Origin: a virus
Lineage: Duplodnaviria > Caudoviricetes
Length of the DNA stretch: 64,000 bases
Virus record (IMG/VR): IMGVR_UViG_3300033069_001378
Location: 96,001 to 160,000 of that record
Direction: 5' to 3' (one strand)
This document shows positions 1,998 through 33,050 of this stretch, one piece after another (the first letter of the stretch is position 1; every line of letters starts with the position of its first letter). Under the pieces are notes generated by a model. The model did not search any database, was not told where the DNA came from, and was given only the letters and a program-made list of their open reading frames with translations. Both the position numbers and the translations under genes were made by a program.

Positions 1998-3727
1998 CAC
2001 AGCAACAAATTCAAGAAGTAAAAACGCAAGAAGTTGTTTTTGGAGACAAGGCACACTCTGAAATACTAAAGGGTGCAACAATTCTAGCGGAAGCCGTCAA
2101 GTCTACGATGGGACCATCAGGTCATAGCGTAATCATTGATATGGACGTCGGTGCTCCTCTTATTACCAAAGACGGAGTAACTGTTGCAAGAAGCATCAAT
2201 CTCAAGGACCGTCTTCAGTCAATGGGTGCCGAGCTAATCAAAGAAGTTGCTTCAAAGACAAACGAGCTTGCAGGAGACGGAACCACAACAGCTACCGTTC
2301 TTGCTCATACCTTACTTCAAGCAGGAACAAGAGCGGTTGCCACAGGATGCTCTTCCATTGAACTCAAAAAGGGAATGGATATAGCAACAGAGACAGTCCT
2401 TCAGTTCTTGAAGGAAAATGTCACTCCTATTAGCGGAAAAGAAGACATAATCAACGTTGGAACCATTTCCGCAAACGGAGACAGAGAACTTGGACAACTT
2501 ATTGCAGACGCAATTGAGAAGGTTGGACAAGATGGAATCATAACAGTAGAGCCAGCCAAGAGCGTTCATACGACACTCAACACGGTAGAAGGACTACAGC
2601 TTGATTCAGGATACGTCTCAGGTTTCTTTATCACAAATTCCGAAAAGGCAAACTGTGAATTTGAGAATCCTTACATTGTCATTACTGCCAACAAGATCGT
2701 CAACATTTCCGATGTTGTTCCAATCATGGAAAAGGCAATAAACGCAAACAAACCACTTGTCATCATTGCAGACGACATTGAGGGAGAAGCATTGCACACA
2801 CTTATCGTTAACTCGATGAAAAGAGTTATCAAAGTTTGCGCAATCAAGGCTCCTAGTTACGGTGAACACAGATCAGACCTTCTTGGGGATCTTGCAACGG
2901 TTGTTGGCACAGAAGTTGTTGGTGCAACAACAGAGCTAAAGATTGACAGAATGAAGGTAGAGAACTTTGGAACCTGTGCAAAGGTTATCGTCAACAGAGG
3001 AAACACAATCTTTGTTGGAAGTGACAAGGATCAGTCTCTCAAGGCAAGAACAAAAGAAAGAATCGATTCCCTGAGAACTCTTTTGACAACCGATAACACA
3101 CTTGACGAGGCTCGTATGGCAAGGTACCGCCAGAGGCTTGCAAAGCTATCAGGAGGCGTTGCAATCATCAAGGTGGGTGGAAGTACCGAGATTGAAATCA
3201 GAGAGAAGAAGGACCGTGTAGACGACGCTGTGAATGCAACCATTGCTGCAACTCAAGAAGGCATTGTCCCCGGTGGTGGAACCATGTTGTTCTATGCGTC
3301 TCAGTATCTAAAGGAATATCTCAAGAGTGAAAAGCTTATTGGAATTCTTTCTGATGACACAATGACTGGTATAAAGGTTGTAGCAGAAGCTTGTGAAGCT
3401 CCATTTAGAACAATCATCGGTAATACAGGAAGAAGTCCAGACGTATTTGCCAATGACCTACTAAAGACAATCGAAGGAACCGTCATATATTCAACAGAGC
3501 CAAAGACCTATGTTGACGAACATGGAAAGTTACACACTTGGAAACTTCCTGCAAGCTTCAACAAAGGTTTTGACGCACGTACAGGTAAATACGTAGACTT
3601 GATTGCAAGCGGCGTTATTGATCCTTCAAAGGTAACTCGTTTGTCCCTTGAACATGCCACTTCTGTTGTTGGACTTGTTCTTACATGCAACTCGATAATC
3701 GTTAACAGTGAAGAAAAATCAAACTAA
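1994..3727 (+). CDS. groEL: Chaperonin GroEL (Cpn60)
   Basis: TMGP, ITKDGVTVA, AGDGTTTAT, TISANGD, RLAKLSGGVA, EGIVPGGG and GVIDP motifs. Confidence 0.98.
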   Translation: MTQQQIQEVKTQEVVFGDKAHSEILKGATILAEAVKSTMGPSGHSVIIDMDVGAPLITKDGVTVARSINLKDRLQSMGAELIKEVASKTNELAGDGTTTATVLAHTLLQAGTRAVATGCSSIELKKGMDIATETVLQFLKENVTPISGKEDIINVGTISANGDRELGQLIADAIEKVGQDGIITVEPAKSVHTTLNTVEGLQLDSGYVSGFFITNSEKANCEFENPYIVITANKIVNISDVVPIMEKAINANKPLVIIADDIEGEALHTLIVNSMKRVIKVCAIKAPSYGEHRSDLLGDLATVVGTEVVGATTELKIDRMKVENFGTCAKVIVNRGNTIFVGSDKDQSLKARTKERIDSLRTLLTTDNTLDEARMARYRQRLAKLSGGVAIIKVGGSTEIEIREKKDRVDDAVNATIAATQEGIVPGGGTMLFYASQYLKEYLKSEKLIGILSDDTMTGIKVVAEACEAPFRTIIGNTGRSPDVFANDLLKTIEGTVIYSTEPKTYVDEHGKLHTWKLPASFNKGFDARTGKYVDLIASGVIDPSKVTRLSLEHATSVVGLVLTCNSIIVNSEEKSN

Positions 3728-3753
3728 GAAGAGAAATTTAGGAGAACAACAAA

Positions 3754-4116
3754 ATGGCAAAAGGTGACAGAGTTAGAATTGACGCAACAACAGGGATCTT
3801 CTCAGAAAACGGAGGACAAGAACTTGTCTACGTTTATGAACCAAGAATTGATCCAAACACAGGTAAGCCTCTTATGAATCCATCTGACGGCACTTGCTTG
3901 ATCGAATGTAAGGGTGGAATCACAAAGGGTTCGTTCGGATTCATTGAAGGTGAAACTCTTAAGATCAGCAAAATGTCTCTGAAAGATTACAATGGAGTTC
4001 CTGGCATCCATGGAACAGATACAACTATACTGATTCCAGTGTTCCTAGAAAGATATCAACGTCGTGGTTGGTTTCCAGCCGACAACGTGAGAATTGTAGC
4101 AGGTGGTTTAGCCTGA
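3754..4116 (+). CDS. Hypothetical protein (beta-rich, possibly SH3-like)
   Basis: 120-aa ORF, AGGAGA upstream. Confidence 0.7.
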   Translation: MAKGDRVRIDATTGIFSENGGQELVYVYEPRIDPNTGKPLMNPSDGTCLIECKGGITKGSFGFIEGETLKISKMSLKDYNGVPGIHGTDTTILIPVFLERYQRRGWFPADNVRIVAGGLA

Positions 4117-4168
4117 TACAGTATGACAGCACAATAGTAGTGAGACAGTAGTATCAGTTAATACGAAA

Positions 4169-4199
4169 AGAAACGGGGAGATTTTGTCTCCCCGTTTCT
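4169..4199. terminator. Terminator hairpin between convergent operons
   Basis: Perfect 13-bp stem AGAAACGGGGAGA/TCTCCCCGTTTCT. Confidence 0.85.
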
Positions 4200-4220
4200 C
4201 ATTTTCTGTGTGTTATGAAA

Positions 4221-4889
4221 TTACTTCTTGGTCTTAAGAGCTTCTCTGATGATATTTGTCATCTGAGTTCTTGTTAACTTTACTGTTGTACCTTCTGTCA
4301 ATCCGTAGATATCTGCGTAGCCTTTTGCTTCTTCTGGTGTTCTACGTCCAGTTGCAATATCAAATGACAAGTCTCCACCGTTGTCTGCTTGAGTCTCAGG
4401 CATGTAGGTTGATGCCGAGACAAGGTTTTCTTCTGCGTGAACAAGAAAACGTGACATTTTGTCTCTTCTTTTACCTCTTGGAAGTTGAGCTACAAAGGAC
4501 TGTAGGTTCTCGATTGCTCTAATAGCAATTCCCATGTTTGCATCGATGCTTCTTGTAACATCGCCTGGAGCTTCTTCAAGGGCATCTTCTTCCATTACTT
4601 CTGAATAGCCTTCTTCTACTGGTGGTTGAGCTTGAACTCCGATAATGTGATTAAGGAACTGATCCCAATCCATTTCCATCGATTCACCAGTTGGTGTCCA
4701 TTCGCTTGGCTCATCGTCATAGAAAGAATCTTCTTGATAGAGATCAACGAAGTGTCTTGCGTCAACTCCACTCTTATCGAGCAGCGCGCTTATCTTCTCA
4801 AAAATGTCGCCACGGATTGTCTTTTCAAAGTAGTTGACTTGATTGACGCCGGCTTTTGCTAATAGTTGTGCTAATTTCTGTTTGTTCAT
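4221..4889 (-). CDS. Acidic hypothetical protein, possible internal head protein
   Basis: 222-aa ORF with C-terminal LTRTQMTNIIREAL. Confidence 0.7.
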   Translation of the reverse strand: MNKQKLAQLLAKAGVNQVNYFEKTIRGDIFEKISALLDKSGVDARHFVDLYQEDSFYDDEPSEWTPTGESMEMDWDQFLNHIIGVQAQPPVEEGYSEVMEEDALEEAPGDVTRSIDANMGIAIRAIENLQSFVAQLPRGKRRDKMSRFLVHAEENLVSASTYMPETQADNGGDLSFDIATGRRTPEEAKGYADIYGLTEGTTVKLTRTQMTNIIREALKTKK

Positions 4890-4904
4890 GTTGTTGTTCT
4901 TCTT

Positions 4905-5636
4905 TCAGGCTCCAATTAATACACGTTGCTTAAGTAGGAAGACAAATCCTTCTTGTTCGTCAAGAATACCAGCCAACAAGTTGTCAAGTCCCTTTGTGAG
5001 TAAGTCTTTATCTTGAAGGTCCATCATCATCTTTTCGACTGTGTGAATGAAAAGCTCGATAGTGTCCTTACCTCTCTTTGCATAGAGAAAGTTGATGTTG
5101 TCATCGTCTGTGACGAGTGAGTGCATGTTGTTCACATGATCAAGGAAGACTTCCATTGTTTCTGTGATCTTCTCGGAAGAAATAAGGTTTGGAGAACCAA
5201 GACCAATTGCTTTTTCTGCAACTCCATCAATCTGCCCATCGATTCCTTCATAGATTCTTTGGAACATAAGGTGGTCGCCATAGAAGCTGTTTCCATTCAC
5301 CTTCCAGTGAAAGGTTTGGAATAGAACGGTCATACCTTCAAGCATTCCTACGATTGCTCCAAGCTCAGCATAGGGATGACCGGCAAAAGGCTCAATTACC
5401 TTGGTAAGAAGCTCTTCTTGGTCCACAGGATTGTCCATAAGGTCAACGTTGATAGGTGCAGGAACGGACGATGTGTCGGTTGTCATAGGAATGCCAGCAT
5501 CAAAGTCATTCTCAGGTCCAACCGAGTTTGATTCATGCTCTCTTGGCATAATGGCTATGTCACCCATGGACTGTTCTTTGATTGTTGTTGTTGTTTTGAC
5601 TTTTTCTGTCAAAAAAGTCTTTGTGAAGAATGACAT
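4905..5636 (-). CDS. Dps/ferritin-like protein with acidic N-terminal extension
   Basis: FHWKVNGNSFYGDHLMFQRIYE...IDGVAEKAIGLG ferroxidase-type signature. Confidence 0.85.
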   Translation of the reverse strand: MSFFTKTFLTEKVKTTTTIKEQSMGDIAIMPREHESNSVGPENDFDAGIPMTTDTSSVPAPINVDLMDNPVDQEELLTKVIEPFAGHPYAELGAIVGMLEGMTVLFQTFHWKVNGNSFYGDHLMFQRIYEGIDGQIDGVAEKAIGLGSPNLISSEKITETMEVFLDHVNNMHSLVTDDDNINFLYAKRGKDTIELFIHTVEKMMMDLQDKDLLTKGLDNLLAGILDEQEGFVFLLKQRVLIGA

Positions 5637-5660
5637 TTAGTGAACTCCCTTATGCGAAAC

Positions 5661-5682
5661 ATACTTATACTCGAATAAGTAT
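5661..5682. promoter_or_regulatory. Divergent pair of ATACTTA motifs (putative late promoters)
   Basis: ATACTTA at 5661-5667 and TAAGTAT at 5676-5682 between divergent genes. Confidence 0.55.
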
Positions 5683-5710
5683 TCGTTTCACATTAGAAAG
5701 GCACACAAAA

Positions 5711-6145
5711 ATGTCAGGTTATAACACATTCAACTATCCAGCTTCGGGATTAAACAATGCGGCAGAGTATATCGCATCGGGACTTCCTTGGGTAACAAGC
5801 TCACAAGCAACCACAAGTCCTTTCTCCTACAACTTCCCATTTGTTACCAATATGATAACGGTAGCAAACTCAGGAACCCTTCCATTGAGAATTGGCTTTA
5901 CCCAAAACGGAGTCAATGGAGTTGGTGGATCAAACTACTTTGTTGTACCTGCTGCTGCAACTGTAGATCTTGACGTAAGAGTGAGAACACTCTATGTTCG
6001 CTCAGACTCAGGCACAATCAGCTACAGCATCTTTGCAGGACTAACACAAATCCCATCCAGAGGATTTCCTCTGTTGACGGGATCTGCTGCTCAATTTAAT
6101 CCAAACGCTACCGGAAGCCAATATGGCTACGACGGAATTGGTTGA
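5711..6145 (+). CDS. Probable virion structural protein
   Basis: Likely start MSGYNTFNY at 5711; G/S/T-rich beta composition. Confidence 0.65.
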   Translation: MSGYNTFNYPASGLNNAAEYIASGLPWVTSSQATTSPFSYNFPFVTNMITVANSGTLPLRIGFTQNGVNGVGGSNYFVVPAAATVDLDVRVRTLYVRSDSGTISYSIFAGLTQIPSRGFPLLTGSAAQFNPNATGSQYGYDGIG

Positions 6146-6149
6146 TGGA

Positions 6150-6635
6150 TCAATCGTCTTGATTTCTCTTTGCAGCTAGCACTGACAGGTAAATCGAACA
6201 CTTAGAGTGAAACTCATGCCCTTTCTTAAGGGCATTTTTTGCGTTCGGAATAAGAACAGAAAGGGTTTCGTTAACGTGCTCTCTTAGCTTTTTGTTCTTA
6301 TGGTAGTTGGTCATGTTTACGACAAGAATGGCACTTGCTTGAGTCATCCAATCAACGTAGATATCAAGAATGTAGTCGATTGGCAAAGAAGTTTTTAACT
6401 CTGCTTGTCGCTTCATATCTGCCAAAATGAATGGATTGATGGCATAGACGTTTGGAGAAATAGAAAACTTGTCCAACTCTTCTTGCGGAATCTTGTTTTC
6501 CTTCAAGTTCTTGAACGTCTCTTCACAGTGTTCTACAAGAAGATCAAGGACTTTAAGTTTATGATCGACTGCATCAACCAATTCCTGTGATACTTCATCC
6601 TTGTCTGTCATTCTAGTCTTTGTTGTATCGCTCAT
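6150..6635 (-). CDS. Hypothetical protein
   Basis: 161-aa ORF in an operon. Confidence 0.65.
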   Translation of the reverse strand: MSDTTKTRMTDKDEVSQELVDAVDHKLKVLDLLVEHCEETFKNLKENKIPQEELDKFSISPNVYAINPFILADMKRQAELKTSLPIDYILDIYVDWMTQASAILVVNMTNYHKNKKLREHVNETLSVLIPNAKNALKKGHEFHSKCSIYLSVLAAKRNQDD

Positions 6636-6845
6636 ATAATCATTCTAAAACGTTGTGGTCAACAATGCTGTCCGCAAGTATGTCTTGGTTGAGGTTGGTT
6701 TTGGATTTGTTATAGATTTTTTGTTCTTCTTGGAGTGGAGGAGCAATCATCGCTGGAGGGATCTCCAGGGTAATTTCTAGTCTTGGCTGTTCGTAAGCTT
6801 CTTTATTTTGTTTTGCCATATTTCACTCCCTAAAGATAAATACAG

Positions 6846-7388
6846 TCACCAAACAGTCTTACGCTTCGAATGATGCTTTATCGTCCAATCATAGATTGCC
6901 ATTCCAAAAGCAACAGAGATATTCAAATCGTTGTTGATTCCGAACATTGGGATGGAAACTACGTCCTTTGAAACGTTCAGAATCTCATCAGGCACACCAC
7001 TCTTCTCAGAACCAAAGACCAAGATTGGTTCATTTGGATACTCGTATCCCCAACTTGTCTTCGTTGTCAGCAAGCCAGGTCGTCTCTCAAAAGAGACAAT
7101 GTTTCGTTCAGAGGTCTTCTCAAGAAAGTCCTTGAGAGTGAGAAGTTCAATGTCCTCGTACTTGTGATTTCCCATGGTTCCCTTCTCGTAGAAAGGATCC
7201 TTTGACTCTTCAATGTCAACGAGATAAATCTTGCGTACAAGAAAGGAATGCGCTGTGCGAATGATGCCAGCGATATTGAAGTAATTGCCTGCTCCGTATA
7301 TTGCAACGTCTACAGGGTGACGAATCTCACTTAGAACTTCGACAATCTCTTCCTTGGAGAAATCGTCAAGATTGGGCTTTGTTGTCAT
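6846..7388 (-). CDS. SpoU/TrmH-family RNA 2'-O-methyltransferase (SPOUT)
   Basis: NIAGIIRTA, LVFGSEKSGV, SIPMFG..DLNISVA motifs. Confidence 0.92.
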   Translation of the reverse strand: MTTKPNLDDFSKEEIVEVLSEIRHPVDVAIYGAGNYFNIAGIIRTAHSFLVRKIYLVDIEESKDPFYEKGTMGNHKYEDIELLTLKDFLEKTSERNIVSFERRPGLLTTKTSWGYEYPNEPILVFGSEKSGVPDEILNVSKDVVSIPMFGINNDLNISVAFGMAIYDWTIKHHSKRKTVW

Positions 7389-27796: not shown

Positions 27797-27973
27797 CTAT
27801 TCTACAATTACCCAAAGATTGTCTTCCGGTTCCATTGTCTCAATTGGATGAATCGATCTCCATCCTTGAGGGATTGGCATAGATGCCCAATGCCAAAGCC
27901 ATGATGCATCCGTTACCGAAAGATTAACGCAACCATGGGATCTTCTTGTTCCAAACTGGTCGTGCCAGAATGC
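27797..27973 (-). pseudogene. Displaced 3' end of the L,D-transpeptidase gene (58 codons + stop, no start)
   Basis: Translates AFWHDQFGTRRSHGCVNLSVTDASWLWHWASMPIPQGWRSIHPIETMEPEDNLWVIVE*, collinear with the C-terminus of 28714-29877. Confidence 0.9.
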
Positions 27974-28717
27974 TCAACTCATTTCTAGTGCGGTACGTAA
28001 TTTCGTTTCTATTTCTTCATCAAATCTTATTCTTAGAAGACGAATATTTGATGATAAGCAAAAATCGTCTTTTATGTGATCTCTCGTTCTAATGTTTGCC
28101 AAGTTTTGTTCAGCAGATATTCTTTTGCTATATGACATAGGCACATAATGTTGTCTGCCGTCGTATTCTATACACAAATTGTGGCTTGGCAAGTAAAAAT
28201 CAAATCTGAGTGGCTTCTTTGCCTTGCATTCTTTGAACACTTTTTGTTCAACGTAGTTCAGGTTGAAAGATTCAAGAAGCAACCTTATTTTTCTTTCTCC
28301 TTTTGATTCGTTGCATTTTGGACAACCATGCTTATCTCTTATCAGATTGGTTGGGTGTGCCTCAAATTGAGATTGATGCTTTTGACATATGACTACAACC
28401 TTTGTTTTATCATTTACATACTCTACTTTAGAGTAGTCGTACTTGTCTCCATGCATCTTTACACATTGTTCAATAAAAGTAGCTTGATTTTTTCTTTGAG
28501 AAACTGACATTTTAACTGCTGTGCATTTTTTGCAACCAACACCATTTATATGGTGCCTTGGTTGAATTAAGAATGGTCCATGTGTAGAGCACACAATCTT
28601 TACTTTACTGATTGCACAAGTATAATCAACATTTGAATAGTCATACAAATCACCGTGTTTTTCTTTAGCTCGATGAATGAACTTTTCCGTCGTGTATGAT
28701 TTGTAATTTGTTTTCAT
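27974..28717 (-). mobile_element. Free-standing homing endonuclease gene (two Cys/His repeats + Vsr/DUF559-like nuclease)
   Basis: HGD.YDYS.V.Y...KV...C..H...GC.KC twice; SKGE...FDFYL...IEYDGRQH...RD..K...C...LLRI; ATGA-coupled to the L,D-transpeptidase stop. Confidence 0.85.
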
Positions 28718-29877
28718 TCTACCACAACCCATAAATCATTTGTGTTTGGAGCGACGATAGGGTGTATCGAACGCCAACCAGGCGGTATTTCAATTTCAGA
28801 CCATCTCCATAACCATTCGGCGTCGCGAATGCTTAAGTTTACACATCCATGTGAACGGCGAGAACCAAAGGAATCGTGATAAAATGCTCCATGCAAAGCA
28901 ATAGCTTCATTGAAATACATAACCCAGGGTACGCCTTCAACAGAATACGGATGAGAACCTCCACCAACCATTTGAGTATACGTAATCTTTCTTCTAACTT
29001 GAAAGATTCCCGGTCTTGTTGGGTGACGAGCAGATCCAGAAGAGATCAAAGTTGCAAATGCCAAATGATCATTTCTATCATAGGCAGTTAGCACTTGTTG
29101 AGCTAGATCAACGTGAACCCATTGAGAGCCTCCAGGAACCTCTGTAGGGCGTTGTCTTGCGTAACCGAGTCGTACTGCGTTCCTGTCTTCTATGTAGCCT
29201 GTAGGCACCGTTATGGCTCCTCTAGCGTGCATGTAGAAGTCCACAGGAAACCTTTCGTACCTGTGAACCGTTCTCTGTGTTCCGCGAAGAGAATCTGTTA
29301 ACTGTGTGTCCCGAATTATGAAAAGAAAACCGCCAGCAGGAGGATTTTGCCAACCAGAAAACGTGCTTGGTTCAAAAACGTCCAATAAGTTTAAAGGAAC
29401 CTCTGTTCCGTTTGGTCGAACTAGAGCAGTTGGTGTTCTGTTAATGAAATAGAGTTCATCGCCGTGTCTTAACATTTGCTCTTCGTTGATATCAAAGGCA
29501 TGACGTCCTCTATATTTTGCCCAAATGAAGTTTTGCGGTCCATTTGCAATAAAGTGCGCTTCTCTTGTTCTTGTTGAAATTGGGCTTAAATATGAGAGTC
29601 TTGTGGCACCAAAAGGCACCAACTCTGCCCATGCGTTTCTGTCATCGCAAGAGGGTACGCATCTTGACACTTGCACAATGTCTCCAAAACGCAACAATGC
29701 CACCGAAGGACCGAAGTTGTCCAACGATGGCTTAACAAAAACGTCTTCCCTTGTTGATATCCAAAAATAGGAAGAGGAATTAGTTTGTTGCTCTTGAGAT
29801 AATGCGATGCTTGGAAAACTTAGCGAAGCGAGTAAAACTGCAATCAGAACATAGATTGATTTTGAATTTGTTATCAT
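28714..29877 (-). CDS. Secreted L,D-transpeptidase (YkuD family)
   Basis: Signal peptide; VHVDLAQQVL.AY, ISSG...TRPG.F, ALHGAF.......SHGCVNLS..DA.WL. Confidence 0.93.
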   Translation of the reverse strand: MITNSKSIYVLIAVLLASLSFPSIALSQEQQTNSSSYFWISTREDVFVKPSLDNFGPSVALLRFGDIVQVSRCVPSCDDRNAWAELVPFGATRLSYLSPISTRTREAHFIANGPQNFIWAKYRGRHAFDINEEQMLRHGDELYFINRTPTALVRPNGTEVPLNLLDVFEPSTFSGWQNPPAGGFLFIIRDTQLTDSLRGTQRTVHRYERFPVDFYMHARGAITVPTGYIEDRNAVRLGYARQRPTEVPGGSQWVHVDLAQQVLTAYDRNDHLAFATLISSGSARHPTRPGIFQVRRKITYTQMVGGGSHPYSVEGVPWVMYFNEAIALHGAFYHDSFGSRRSHGCVNLSIRDAEWLWRWSEIEIPPGWRSIHPIVAPNTNDLWVVVE

Positions 29878-29891
29878 ATAGATAACTATTC

Positions 29892-31010
29892 TCAGTTGTA
29901 CTCCGTTACGTTGCCCTTGCGCAAAAGATAATCGTCCGATACAGACTTAAGCTGGATTCGACCAAAAACTCCATCAAAGCGATGAGGATTGTTATCGAAC
30001 GTTACAGTACGCTCAACGACAGGACGAATGACAATGCCCTCACGGATACATGCAGCCTTTCCAGAAACAGTCTCCCTGCCATTGGTGTAAGTGTCTACAG
30101 CAGCCTTAGAGAATGGTCCACGGTAAACAACAGGAACTCGATCAAGCTTGCAAGCACTAAGAAACTGATCAAGCTCTGCATCGCTAAGGAAAGTGCCGCT
30201 CTCTCGTGATCCTGTGAATACGTCGAAAGCACGGAACTTCACCTCACCAGCAGTACAACCGTAAGCAAGATCCTGAACTCCGTTTCCGTAAATCTCACCG
30301 AGAATGAAGACAGGCTCCTTGTTATTGTCTCCAACTGCATCAACAATCTGCTTCTCAAGCTGATTTGCAATTCGGCAGTAAACGTTTCCTACGTTCTCAA
30401 GATGCTTGTGACGGAAGGAAAGACCCGAGGCTCCAAGACCCTTTGAGGAAACGGTAATACGTGAACCCTCTGGAAGATCCTCAAGCCAACTAGGATCATT
30501 AGGCATAACACCGATGCAACAAAAAGTACCGTGAAGCTTCTCACAGAATACAACCTGCTCACCGTCGTTGAAGAGATTCGGAAACTTCTTGAAGTTCTCG
30601 ATATCATACTTCATTGTACGATGCTGACCTGCATTCATGTAATTACCGCGAAGAGCAACAGGAATCTCTGGCTCCCACTTGACAATTCCAAGTGCCTCTG
30701 TAACGTCATCGCCCTCGTTCCAATCAGGACGAGCACGATAGACAAGACCCTGAGACACGATGCCACGAAGCTTTACAGCCTTGACCTTGTTTCCTCCCGG
30801 TCCCGAAAGCTTGTCAACAAGCCCAAGCTCCTCAAGAATGTTCTTGGGAACGAGTGAAGCCTCTGGAATGTAGGCAACAAGATCACCGTCCTTGAACTCT
30901 CCCTTGCGAACGATTGAACGATAATCACCAATTACCGCGAGTTCTAAATTGTCGGCAGCCGAGTGCTTTTCAAGCACAATCTTATATACTTTTACCTGAA
31001 AATTGCTCAT
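29892..31010 (-). CDS. RNA ligase (Rnl2-like/DRB0094 family with N-terminal OB domain)
   Basis: HSAADNLE, V.KGEF..GD.V.YIP, LRGIVSQGL, EKLHGT, GEIYG.GVQ, FDV, REGIVI, LKSVS..YL; start MSNFQ at 31010. Confidence 0.93.
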   Translation of the reverse strand: MSNFQVKVYKIVLEKHSAADNLELAVIGDYRSIVRKGEFKDGDLVAYIPEASLVPKNILEELGLVDKLSGPGGNKVKAVKLRGIVSQGLVYRARPDWNEGDDVTEALGIVKWEPEIPVALRGNYMNAGQHRTMKYDIENFKKFPNLFNDGEQVVFCEKLHGTFCCIGVMPNDPSWLEDLPEGSRITVSSKGLGASGLSFRHKHLENVGNVYCRIANQLEKQIVDAVGDNNKEPVFILGEIYGNGVQDLAYGCTAGEVKFRAFDVFTGSRESGTFLSDAELDQFLSACKLDRVPVVYRGPFSKAAVDTYTNGRETVSGKAACIREGIVIRPVVERTVTFDNNPHRFDGVFGRIQLKSVSDDYLLRKGNVTEYN

Positions 31011-31689
31011 TTTTAAACTCCAGAAATTGTTCCTTGGTATTTTTGCCATATCCATAAATTTTATGGAACCTTAAATGACAAGCTTCACACAAGCAAACGC
31101 CATTGTCAATTGACAGCCGTTGTTCAACGTATATGTCATAACTATTCAAATGATGACTTACTAAAGTCCCAGATTTAGGTGTCAGACAAACCTGGCATTT
31201 AAAGTCGTCTCTTTTTTTAACAGAGAAAAGCCATTCTTTGTATCCGAAAATAAGTCTTCCTTTTTCTCGATCAGCCGTCTGCAAGCTTGCGTTGTAGTTT
31301 GGATTTTTCTCTCCACTGATTGATTTTGCGTATTCTGTTTTTATACATCCACAACTTTGTGTTGTTTTATTGGTTAGCCTTGTTTTAGAAACCACGCAAC
31401 TGTTTCCACAGTCACATAAACACGTCCACCAACTTGTTCGCCATTTATCTTGATGCGAATAAGACTTAACAGTAAGTTTGCAAAATTTTAAACCGACAAA
31501 ATCCTTTATTTTAGGTCCAGTTTTCAGACAACCACAGCTTTTTACTTTGCCATTTACTAGATTGATGGATTTTACAATCTTGTTGTTTCCACAATCACAT
31601 AACGTCATCCATAACCGCTCAGAACGATTATTTTTGCCTGCTTCCTCAAGCACAGTAAGATTTGCAAATTTGGTTCCGATTTCTATCAT
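30982..31689 (-). mobile_element. Free-standing HNH homing endonuclease gene
   Basis: Two G.KF..LTV...W.CLCDCGN...SCGC repeats, then CQVC...HHLNSY...NGVCLCEACH..FH; AT-rich. Confidence 0.88.
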
Positions 31690-31706
31690 ACGATTAAGTA
31701 TGCATC

Positions 31707-31781
31707 CTAATGCAAAATTGCATCGGCATTGGGATGAGGCTCAATCTTAACCGAATAAACCTTGACTACAAAGTTTGACAT
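31707..31781 (-). pseudogene. Displaced 5' end of the RNA ligase gene
   Basis: Translates MSNFVVKVYSVKIEPHPNADAILH* versus ligase start MSNFQVKVYKIVLEKHSAADNLE. Confidence 0.88.
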
Positions 31782-31786
31782 ATCTC

Positions 31787-32212
31787 TTACTTTCTACCTT
31801 CCCACGAAAACGTATTGGTTTCCTTATTCAAGGAAACTCCGCGAACATTGTCGTTATCCGAATATTCATCGTTCAGGATATACATCCAAACAGGCTGATT
31901 TTCAAGCCCTTCAAGCTCAATCTCCGATCGAGTGTAAAACGATCCGTTGCTCTCAAGACGATCAAGTCGTACGAGATCGTCATCATCAACCAAAAAAAGC
32001 TCGCCAGAAACGTGAGATCCATTCAAGTAGCTGAAAAGAACGCCAGGATAGACGTTAAATGAAATCATCCTCCAATCGGGATCCTTGGATCGAAATTCAC
32101 CAAGAAACTCGGAATGCCTCAAAATGAAATTGTTATGGAATCCGCGCTTAAGCGAACCATACACAAAAACGAAATGATAACCGTTGTTGGTGCCATTCGA
32201 CGAATCTGACAT
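31787..32212 (-). CDS. Gamma-glutamylcyclotransferase (AIG2/YtfP family)
   Basis: VFVYGSLKRGFHN, YPG, GEL..V, LDRLE...Y.R, WMY; start MSDSS. Confidence 0.92.
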   Translation of the reverse strand: MSDSSNGTNNGYHFVFVYGSLKRGFHNNFILRHSEFLGEFRSKDPDWRMISFNVYPGVLFSYLNGSHVSGELFLVDDDDLVRLDRLESNGSFYTRSEIELEGLENQPVWMYILNDEYSDNDNVRGVSLNKETNTFSWEGRK

Positions 32213-32216
32213 TGTT

Positions 32217-32360
32217 TCAGACCAATTCCTTGAAAAACTTGACTGCCTTGGCAGTACCAATTACAACCAAAAAGACGAGTGCCGCACCAATTTGAACCGG
32301 CAAAAATGCCAGCGTTCGAACGGGGTGCGACTTGAGGCGGGTGAGAACCTTGTTTGTCAT
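32217..32360 (-). CDS. 47-aa membrane peptide (below the ORF-track cutoff)
   Basis: MTNKVLTRLKSHPVRTLAFLPVQIGAALVFLVVIGTAKAVKFFKELV directly after promoter 32370-32399. Confidence 0.55.
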   Translation of the reverse strand: MTNKVLTRLKSHPVRTLAFLPVQIGAALVFLVVIGTAKAVKFFKELV

Positions 32361-32414
32361 TGTATGTATACAATAACATAGATTACACACAATGTAAACA
32401 GCTATTTTGGAAAA

Positions 32415-33050
32415 TTATCCCTTGTTTTTTACAAGGAAAAACGACGATCCACCAAGTCCAAGCTCTTCCGCGTAAATCTTGGCAAGCTGCGTACGTGCTG
32501 CGCGAGCATAAACTCCAGGCTCCGCAATTTCGTGAAACGAAAATGGACGTGAACCGATGCGAGAGAAGAATTGAGAGAAGTCTCCTGCGATGCTTCCCTG
32601 TACGACTTCCTCTCCCTTGCCTGGATAAGCGTTCTCGCAATCGGAAGTGCCTACAAGAGTAACATCACTACCGCCTCGGTTAGAGAAGAGAATGCTATCT
32701 TGCTCAAAAGCTCCACCAAGCGCAACGAGGTCTTCCTTGAGATTTCCCGAATCTTGAAGATCAACAACAAAGAAACTCTCTTCGCCAACTTCCTTGGCAG
32801 TATCGGAACCATAGTCTTCAACGTATGAACCCTTAACCTTTGTGACTCCGTAACCCTTTGTTCGTAGGATTGCGTAAAGCTTTCTGTTTAGCGCACCCTT
32901 CTCCTCGCGAGTGTATGGAGTACCCTGATTGCAATCCCTGGCAGAACGCCATGCGGTAATGAAACCGCAATCATGCTTTGCCAAGTGTTCGTGGATACGA
33001 GAGATTGAAGATTCTTGAAGAGAAGTTTTGTCGATTACTAGTACGTTCAT
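32415..33050 (-). CDS. Conserved phage protein
   Basis: ESSISRI, GFITAWR, L.TKGYGVTKVKGSYVE, EESFFV, FEQDSILF pattern. Confidence 0.75.
   Translation of the reverse strand: MNVLVIDKTSLQESSISRIHEHLAKHDCGFITAWRSARDCNQGTPYTREEKGALNRKLYAILRTKGYGVTKVKGSYVEDYGSDTAKEVGEESFFVVDLQDSGNLKEDLVALGGAFEQDSILFSNRGGSDVTLVGTSDCENAYPGKGEEVVQGSIAGDFSQFFSRIGSRPFSFHEIAEPGVYARAARTQLAKIYAEELGLGGSSFFLVKNKG

Follow-up and report, generated by a model that had tools for sequence, protein, structure and literature searches.

WHO elements of Torulaspora and Lachancea yeasts are units made up of an endonuclease gene and a cut-resistant substitute for one end of the host gene, and they involve no intron or intein splicing (PMC7282813, Coughlan et al. 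2020; preprint 10.64898/2026.08.13.744650, Osborne et al. 2026). The displaced native end is kept as a fragment, which acts as a homology arm in the WHO model, and rapid change at the target site is seen in the carried end. A similar arrangement is observed in a phage genome of the Caudoviricetes, where an HNH nuclease gene interrupts the 5′ part of an RNA ligase gene and is followed by a second start of the same gene. The stretch of DNA that was analyzed (the window) comprises 64,000 nucleotides, corresponding to bases 96001–160000 of an IMG/VR virus record of 252.5 kb (IMGVR_UViG_3300033069_001378), and the whole locus is situated on the minus strand. Comparison with related loci indicates that it probably represents a splicing-free homing endonuclease element with a carried ligase head.

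In contrast to the phage element, the WHO nuclease is a LAGLIDADG enzyme with zinc finger that is related to HO, the host gene part is the 3′ half of FBA1, and homing takes place in a eukaryotic nucleus during meiosis. Here, the enzyme belongs to the HNH type, the carried part is a 5′ end together with a ribosome site and a start codon, the nuclease gene overlaps that of the ligase, and the element resides in a phage genome. Moreover, cleavage has been demonstrated for WHO (PMC7282813), whereas it is a prediction for the phage element. Hybrid genes that remain in use are also produced by mobile open reading frames (ORFs) in fungal mitochondria (atp6 of Allomyces; atp6, atp9, cox2 and nad3 of Glomus; PMC3630166). 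There, identity to relatives amounts to 91% for the native and 63.5% for the inserted end, compared with 94% and 53% in the phage ligase. These mitochondrial ORFs differ in that they encode LAGLIDADG or GIY-YIG enzymes, affect 3′ ends and reside in organelle genomes, and a nuclease lineage specialized on a single host gene in many genomes was not described for them (PMC3630166). The phage element thus resembles the WHO or mitochondrial-hybrid design mirrored to the 5′ end and equipped with an HNH enzyme; because of this enzyme, the 5′ location and the phage genome, it appears to work like these systems without being descended from them.

Among phage systems, the free-standing endonucleases of T-even phages (SegF, SegG and MobE, intronless homing; PMC2988022) likewise adjoin a conserved target gene and spread by break repair with co-conversion of the flanks. 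However, they are intergenic or divide a gene into two parts that both function, and their homing, as described, replaces the recipient flank and leaves no stranded duplicate. According to a preprint of Barth et al. (2023), the homing endonuclease gene islands of ICP1-like vibriophages contain small genes that are fragments of essential neighbors and have been proposed as recombination substrates for later homing (PMC10055350). Host-gene fragments beside phage endonuclease genes are common to both cases, but neither a carried replacement start nor a fixed in-gene insertion point or a target-mimic hairpin was described for the islands. Replacement of a gene end is therefore a design known from yeast nuclei and fungal mitochondria, which for phages has only been hinted at (PMC10055350).

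Structure of the locus

The HNH-free ligases closest to the window ligase by protein search (91, 85 and 80% identity) are encoded on contigs L003 (91%), L004 and L005. On all three contigs the ligase gene directly follows the GGACT gene, without an HNH gene in between. The gene order GGACT, ligase, YkuD, DUF723 is common to the window and L003 and is shared by L004 through YkuD; L005 shares only GGACT and ligase and differs downstream. A blastn alignment matches window positions 33016–31716 with positions 2791–4090 of L003, and positions 30944–27901 with 4091–7135. Since the two blocks abut in L003, this contig is contiguous at 4090|4091, where the window has 771 extra bases (30945–31715). The extra bases are inserted behind codon 22 of the ligase gene, at a distance of two codons from the motif HPNAD. 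They form a cassette in which a leader of 26 nucleotides and an intact HNH gene are combined with a GGAG ribosome site, the new ATG and 22 codons that replace the native ones. An insertion at HPNAD with about 21 carried codons had been proposed in a previous sequence-only reading; colinearity with L003 demonstrates the insertion and the carried start, while the break lies two codons further downstream and the codons number 22. The main features of the locus are as follows.

31787–32212, minus strand: GGACT/AIG2-like gene, the upstream neighbor (PF06094, E 1e-20; same order in L003, L004 and L005)
31716–31781, minus strand: native ligase codons 1–22, now stranded (62/66 nucleotides and 22/22 residues identical to L003)
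31707–31781, minus strand: stranded ORF of 24 residues plus TAG, comprising 22 native and 2 junction codons (reading of the ORF)
30945–31715, minus strand: inserted cassette, 771 nucleotides (blastn and alignment with L003)
30982–31689, minus strand: gene of the putative HNH homing endonuclease P0002, 235 residues (PF01844; phrog_374, E 1e-30)
31018–31021, minus strand: GGAG ribosome site for the ligase, within the HNH coding sequence (conserved C-terminal tail of the HNH clade)
30945–31010, minus strand: replacement ligase codons 1–22 from the cassette (36/66 nucleotides identical to L003)
30927–30944, minus strand: possible donor tract past the replacement codons, suggestive of co-conversion (3 window-unique silent changes, p ~0.06)
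29892–31010, minus strand: working chimeric RNA ligase P0001, 372 residues (PF21189 and PF09414)

The ATG of the stranded ORF is found 5 nucleotides past the TAA of the GGACT gene, and 17 nucleotides separate the end of this ORF from the HNH gene, which possesses separate start and stop codons and is out of frame with the ligase. The start of the ligase overlaps the 3′ end of the HNH gene by 29 nucleotides, with GGAG located 7 nucleotides upstream of the ATG at position 31010. This ATG corresponds to the conserved type of ligase start; further in-frame ATGs at 31055 and 31049 have neither a ribosome site nor a counterpart in homologues. All coordinates from the sequence-only reading (stranded ORF, HNH gene, ligase start, small hairpin and ATACTTA motif) could be verified.

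Origin of the two ligase heads

P0004, which is the closest ligase without HNH, begins with exactly the residues encoded by the stranded 22 codons. At the nucleotide level, the 4 differences from L003 in this piece (62/66 identical) are all silent and none is a replacement. The working head, in contrast, agrees with L003 at only 36/66 nucleotides, and with the stranded copy at 35/66 nucleotides and 12/22 residues, HPNAD being changed to HSAAD. The upstream piece is therefore the native head of the ligase, and the working head is foreign. Consistent with the earlier assumption that the ligase originally began upstream, the HNH-free relatives (L003–L005 and proteins P0007–P0010) all begin with the stranded type, and none of them has a working-type start or a duplicate. 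The combination of working-type start and upstream fragment, which would have contradicted the earlier reading, is thus not seen in these relatives. Past the junction, 3 window-unique silent changes within 18 nucleotides are followed by none over 71 nucleotides (p ~0.06), so that donor sequence may run up to 18 nucleotides beyond the junction.

The ligase body (codons 23–372) differs from that of L003 with a synonymous divergence (dS) of 0.50 and a ratio of non-synonymous to synonymous divergence (dN/dS) of 0.088. None of the roughly 52 non-synonymous sites of the stranded copy, hereafter termed stub, shows a replacement; in the carried head, by contrast, changes have reached saturation. Given the dS of the body, the lack of replacement changes shows that the stub has been released from coding constraint for only a small part of the divergence. 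An old travelling head combined with a young stub would be the pattern predicted by repeated homing. Three further properties are those of known homing elements: close relatives differ in whether the insert occupies one precise site, as is typical of a homing endonuclease gene; the inserted block unites the nuclease gene with a substitute for the host-gene end, the old end being left behind as a fragment; and the element-bearing allele lacks an intact site, which is split by the insert, while the carried head differs at 31/66 nucleotides and reads HSAAD.

Two additional observations were made in the alignment with L003. Identity is about 75% at window positions 31849–33016 (GGACT, GATase and SAM-lyase genes) and about 93% over 27901–31848, which points to a mosaic boundary just ahead of the ligase start and close to the proposed endonuclease site. 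Furthermore, a tract of roughly 900 nucleotides at 27974–28880, which covers a gene for a DUF723/Vsr-like nuclease and the YkuD 3′ end, is 100% identical to L003 between flanks of 85–93%, which points to transfer or conversion in the very recent past.

Stranded ligase starts at related loci

Stubs were surveyed at eight loci with readable DNA upstream of the HNH gene. A stranded ligase start is kept in five of them (window, L007, L009, L086 and L165). In 4/8 loci (window, L007, L009 and L086), a remnant of the form H.NA[D/N] is located 47–69 nucleotides upstream of the HNH ATG, compared with a background of 0.0014 per locus. The degree of preservation differs: L007 contains a clean 23-codon copy of the ligase head, the frame is lost in L086, and only the first 12 codons are present in L165. 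Measured from the Asp codon, the stub ends at about +6 nucleotides in the window, at +9 to +11 in L007 and at about +1 in L009 and L086. Because the stubs end about 1 to 11 nucleotides after this codon, the break is likely to occur just 3′ of the HPNAD codons.

The third residue of the motif is Asn in 107/117 general ligase homologues, a comparison set drawn mostly from cellular genomes and from one ligase subfamily, but in only 3/10 nuclease-linked ligases (Fisher p 1.3e-5; Asn is absent in 9/116 other homologues). In the window and in L007, the stub has Asn whereas the carried head has Ala. This suggests that the altered motif may confer resistance on the chimeric allele. Several findings speak against a simple relation of this kind, beginning with the composition of the comparison set: HPNAD is unchanged in three nuclease-linked ligases (L006, L009 and L086), the Asn-less ligases of L167 and L169 have no HNH gene, and that of L168 has a different, small one. 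The expectation that Asn-less ligases carry the present HNH accordingly holds for P0114 and fails for L167 and L169. Due to these exceptions, resistance would have to be understood in a statistical sense, not as a clean rule. L167, L168 and L169 could be relics that remained after loss of the element.

The HNH gene of L168 (positions 2019–2384) encodes 121 residues and is located 116 nucleotides upstream of a ligase with the motif HPQAD. It possibly belongs to another endonuclease lineage aimed at the same gene.

Domain structure of nuclease and ligase

P0002 matches PF01844 with 25.3 bits (cut-off 21.4). His179, His180, Asn196, His205 and His209 as well as four zinc-binding cysteines are invariant across 50 relatives, and on this basis the nuclease looks active. 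An AlphaFold2 (AF2) model with a mean predicted local distance difference test score (pLDDT) of 93.9 displays two repeated Cys-rich modules, each consisting of a sheet plus helix, followed by the HNH domain. The fold matches that of the HNH protein of phage GVE2 and of Cas9 HNH domains (probability up to 0.99, with E >0.001 for the whole multi-domain model). Since the model has three domains, a Foldseek search of the whole model against the PDB returned weak rows only. Judged from sequence motifs and model, the combination of presumably DNA-binding Cys repeats with an HNH domain corresponds to the architecture of phage homing endonucleases.

The working ligase P0001 is composed of an N-terminal OB domain (PF21189, E 3.7e-10), which is of the PHA02142 type, and an RNA_ligase nucleotidyltransferase domain (PF09414, E 1.1e-21), and contains the lysine motif KLHG. 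The solved relative is the nick-sealing RNA ligase of Naegleria (5COT, E 5e-11). With these features P0001 can be assigned to the OB-domain ATP-dependent RNA ligases of the NgrRnl type (TIGR02306, PHA02142). The catalogued relative nearest by ligase protein is an uncultured 484-kb phage (40% identity).

The ligase of L009 (positions 2995–4956) bears an in-frame intein with a LAGLIDADG_2 domain (residues ~168–516) in addition to the HNH cassette, and thus two different homing elements are found in one ligase gene.

Distribution of the HNH nuclease

The nearest HNH relatives are 40–56% identical to P0002. Wherever the context is readable, the HNH gene abuts or overlaps the start of an OB-domain RNA ligase gene; this is the case in 11 independent contigs, a count that includes the window as well as cases known from gene lists only. 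The ligases of these contigs are as little as ~31% identical to that of the window. Apart from the window, the ligase-linked cases are as follows.

P0124 with P0114; P0127 (L086); P0128 (L166); P0125 (L165); P0134
L006/L021; L007/L034; L009; L028; L101

In a tree of 39 HNH proteins, nine ligase-linked nucleases (the window and eight relatives) form one group, supported by a Shimodaira–Hasegawa-like approximate likelihood ratio test (SH-aLRT) value of 94. Ligase linkage requires a single label change on this tree, compared with 8.2 in shuffles, and none of 500 shuffles gave a number as low. More distant HNH relatives do not lie beside a ligase, and this applies to all 47 that were found in representative prokaryote genomes. 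A lineage of HNH nucleases dedicated to the ligase gene, as indicated by the tree, appears to be new here.

Searches for closer relatives covered 50,697 phage records, in which blastn gave no match to the region. Protein matches in these records are distant, reaching at most 40% for the ligase and, for the HNH protein, at most 37% over most of its length or up to 47% over its C-terminal half; the HNH matches listed lie under features not annotated as RNA ligase. Nothing close was detected in IMG/VR with single proteins as queries.

On L008 (identical to the contig of L087), two related HNH genes (285–1142 and 3001–3681) are situated about 2 kb apart, and neither adjoins a ligase gene.

Putative control region of the HNH gene

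In phage T4, operators that resemble homing sites overlap the late promoters of endonuclease genes, and in read-through transcripts the site of translation initiation is concealed by hairpins (PMC2988022). The DNA from the ligase stub to the start of the HNH gene contains the following elements.

31722–31736, minus strand: HPNAD codons in the stranded piece, the presumed recognition half-site and hairpin 5′ arm
31703–31713, minus strand: inverted copy of the HPNA codons in the leader (GCATTAGGATG), hairpin 3′ arm and candidate operator (10/10 informative positions)
31714–31701, minus strand: small hairpin TGCAT-TAGG-ATGCA (sequence reading)
31695–31701, minus strand: ATACTTA, a gene-upstream motif, 5 nucleotides ahead of the HNH ATG
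31687–31702, minus strand: small hairpin CATAC-6 nucleotides-GTATG, which encloses the HNH start codon (sequence reading)

The leader is conserved between elements and includes the HPNA(D) codons in inverted form; this copy was scored against the reverse complement of the target consensus. It agrees at 10/10 informative positions in the window, at 12/13 each in L007 and L101 and at 11/13 in L086. In a dedicated shuffle test for this 11-nucleotide interrupted inverted repeat, p ranged from <5e-5 (window) up to 1e-3 across these four loci. Pairing of stub and leader has a calculated energy of −11.6 kcal/mol in the window (z −2.5), −19.8 in L007 (z −5.5) and −10.9 in L086 (z −2.0), and is weaker in L101 and L009. 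The arms of the hairpin co-vary between loci (CAT:ATG versus CAC:GTG; CC:GG versus AT:AT in L086), with one internal mismatch in common. The small hairpin noticed previously is confirmed and represents the tip of this more extended structure, in which the leader is paired with the HPNA codons of the stub. Fold-back synthesis was considered as the origin of the inverted copy and was ruled out, because the two copies, those of window and L007, have their internal mismatch in common and are located in homologous leaders.

ATACTTA directly follows the pairing of stub and leader. In the 252-kb genome, 19/34 copies of this heptamer fall into the ~7% of the DNA outside long ORFs, and these intergenic copies are mostly found 5–85 nucleotides upstream of a start on the same strand. 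Among 140 heptamers of the same composition it is the most intergenic one (pooled intergenic share 13.6%). Within the window, ATACTTA occurs at 5661, 5676, 10556, 10573, 19423, 22120 and 39270; as in the genome as a whole, it is often preceded by C. No conserved −35 partner was found for the copies, and a scan for sigma-70 promoters and terminators gave nothing on the minus strand within the insert. ATACTTA is a candidate promoter for a phage-specific transcription factor. An almost identical 17-nucleotide leader, composed of ATACTTA and a 5-bp hairpin holding the ATG, precedes an ORF at G000:C1:249396. The claim that the HNH gene has its own promoter motif gains partial support insofar as ATACTTA is a gene-upstream signal throughout the genome and the leader recurs before another nuclease-like gene. 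The latter, which lies outside the window (G000:C1:249380–250130), encodes 237 residues with Cys-rich repeats and a Vsr-like C-terminal part.

By analogy to T4, leader, hairpin and ATACTTA probably constitute the control region of the HNH gene. For I-TevI, I-TevII, I-TevIII, segB and mobE, a homing-site-like sequence is likewise found upstream, next to a promoter-type motif, and hairpins occur in the start region (PMC2988022). A difference is that the target-like copy is inverted here and pairs with the stranded target; it is a candidate operator judging from its sequence.

Alternative explanations

The most serious alternative assumes a one-off, untidy repair, in which the donor HNH gene was situated cleanly upstream of its ligase, homology was confined to the ligase body, and the upstream side was closed by end joining, leaving the stub as a scar. 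Several findings weigh in its favor and against homing with two homology arms. The ends of the stubs listed above vary by about 10 nucleotides between loci, and the stub of L165 stops at codon 12; the leader of L007 is about 20 bases longer than that of the window; and three of the eight loci (L006, L101 and L166) have no stub. The variable ends and the extra leader bases fit independent untidy joins as well as one fixed border. Moreover, since phages vary in the genes that precede the ligase, upstream homology would often be missing. With regard to homing itself, the donor search revealed no HNH protein closer than 56% identity, and transfer is consequently deduced from the structure of the locus. 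Untidy repair is opposed by the finding that each inverted copy fits its own stub better than that of the other locus (11/12 versus 9/12 in the window, 14/15 versus 11/15 in L007). In L086, where the frame of the stub is lost, pairing has yet been kept by paired changes, which argues for a long co-residence of stub and leader. Finally, a donor as diverged as the carried head (53–55% of nucleotides identical) would offer little homology for a tidy in-frame right junction. Untidy repair is therefore considered an unlikely account of the present locus, but one-sided repair may have been the first origin of such composites.

Alternatively, the HNH protein could be a working partner of the ligase, for instance in a nuclease-ligase pair for repair or counter-defence, and the linkage would then be functional. 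The tight, overlapping HNH-ligase pairs in 11 contigs with ligases of only ~31% identity are in line with this possibility. Contigs L003–L005, however, do without the HNH gene, and among the other ligase homologues with neighborhoods read only P0114 has it. Presence or absence at a precise site, the stranded native head and the re-spelled carried head are hallmarks of an insertion, and the Cys repeats combined with HNH point to a homing endonuclease. A functional partnership is thus very improbable.

A self-splicing intron with an endonuclease ORF, for which the stranded head would be exon 1, is hardly conceivable: although 771 nucleotides are a multiple of three and their removal restores a ligase with a relative-like native head, no conserved RNA core of a group I or II intron was detected (no Rfam match at E<=1 by cmscan of 30700–32000 on both strands), the 26 nucleotides of the insert outside ORFs leave no room for one, and a second complete head with ribosome site would be unexplained. 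A chimeric assembly is equally implausible, as is a tandem duplication at the locus in which the HNH gene had no part, since the two heads share only 53% of their bases, too few to mislead an assembler or for a recent duplication, and the same layout occurs in unrelated contigs from other samples (L007, L009, L086 and L165), even though the source is a single metagenomic contig.

Model for homing and implications

Homing of a splicing-free element with a carried ligase head would proceed as follows. The HNH nuclease is proposed to recognize the DNA encoding HPNAD near the 5′ end of OB-domain RNA ligase genes and to break element-free alleles at most ~10 nucleotides downstream of these codons. 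The ligase-body end of the recipient would then pair with the ligase body of the donor, and the head end with the donor stub. Repair would copy the cassette between both ends, that is the leader, the HNH gene, the ribosome site, the ATG and ~22 re-spelled codons. The ligase would thereby be rebuilt as a chimera of foreign head and native body, in which the Asn codon is changed and no intact site is left, and the native head would remain upstream as a 24-codon stub. This stub probably provides the upstream homology arm for further homing, as in the yeast WHO elements, and its pairing with the inverted copy in the leader, together with ATACTTA, probably controls HNH expression. A WHO-like route of this kind would explain the tidy in-frame borders, the combination of old head and young stub, and the match of each leader with its own stub.

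The hairpin of stub and leader, the recurrent stubs marking the presumed cut site, the loss of Asn and the gene-upstream signal ATACTTA are new here. Tentatively, a third kind of phage homing element besides introns and inteins could be defined, which mirrors the yeast WHO elements and is characterized by an HNH lineage long specialized on the DNA encoding HPNAD in RNA ligase genes, a portable, re-spelled gene head with ribosome site, a stub that doubles as homology arm and as half of a co-evolving hairpin or operator, and an arms race reflected in the loss of Asn from element-borne ligase heads.

Some 11 contigs, five of them with stubs, provide natural variants for testing, in which the stub ends would indicate the cut site and the loss of Asn the key bases. 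An HNH enzyme with a defined site of ~15 bp or longer could also serve as a reagent. With regard to annotation, some small ORFs that precede HNH genes in phages and are labelled "hypothetical" may represent the stranded heads of genes, and N-terminal variation in such ligases may stem from endonuclease conflict and not from function. Judging from the conserved hairpin and ATACTTA, the HNH gene may be governed by a circuit similar to those of the T4 endonucleases. For the phages themselves, the proposed element would mean that a selfish nuclease can inhabit a protein-coding gene of a gene-dense genome without intron or intein, by means of a spare gene head.

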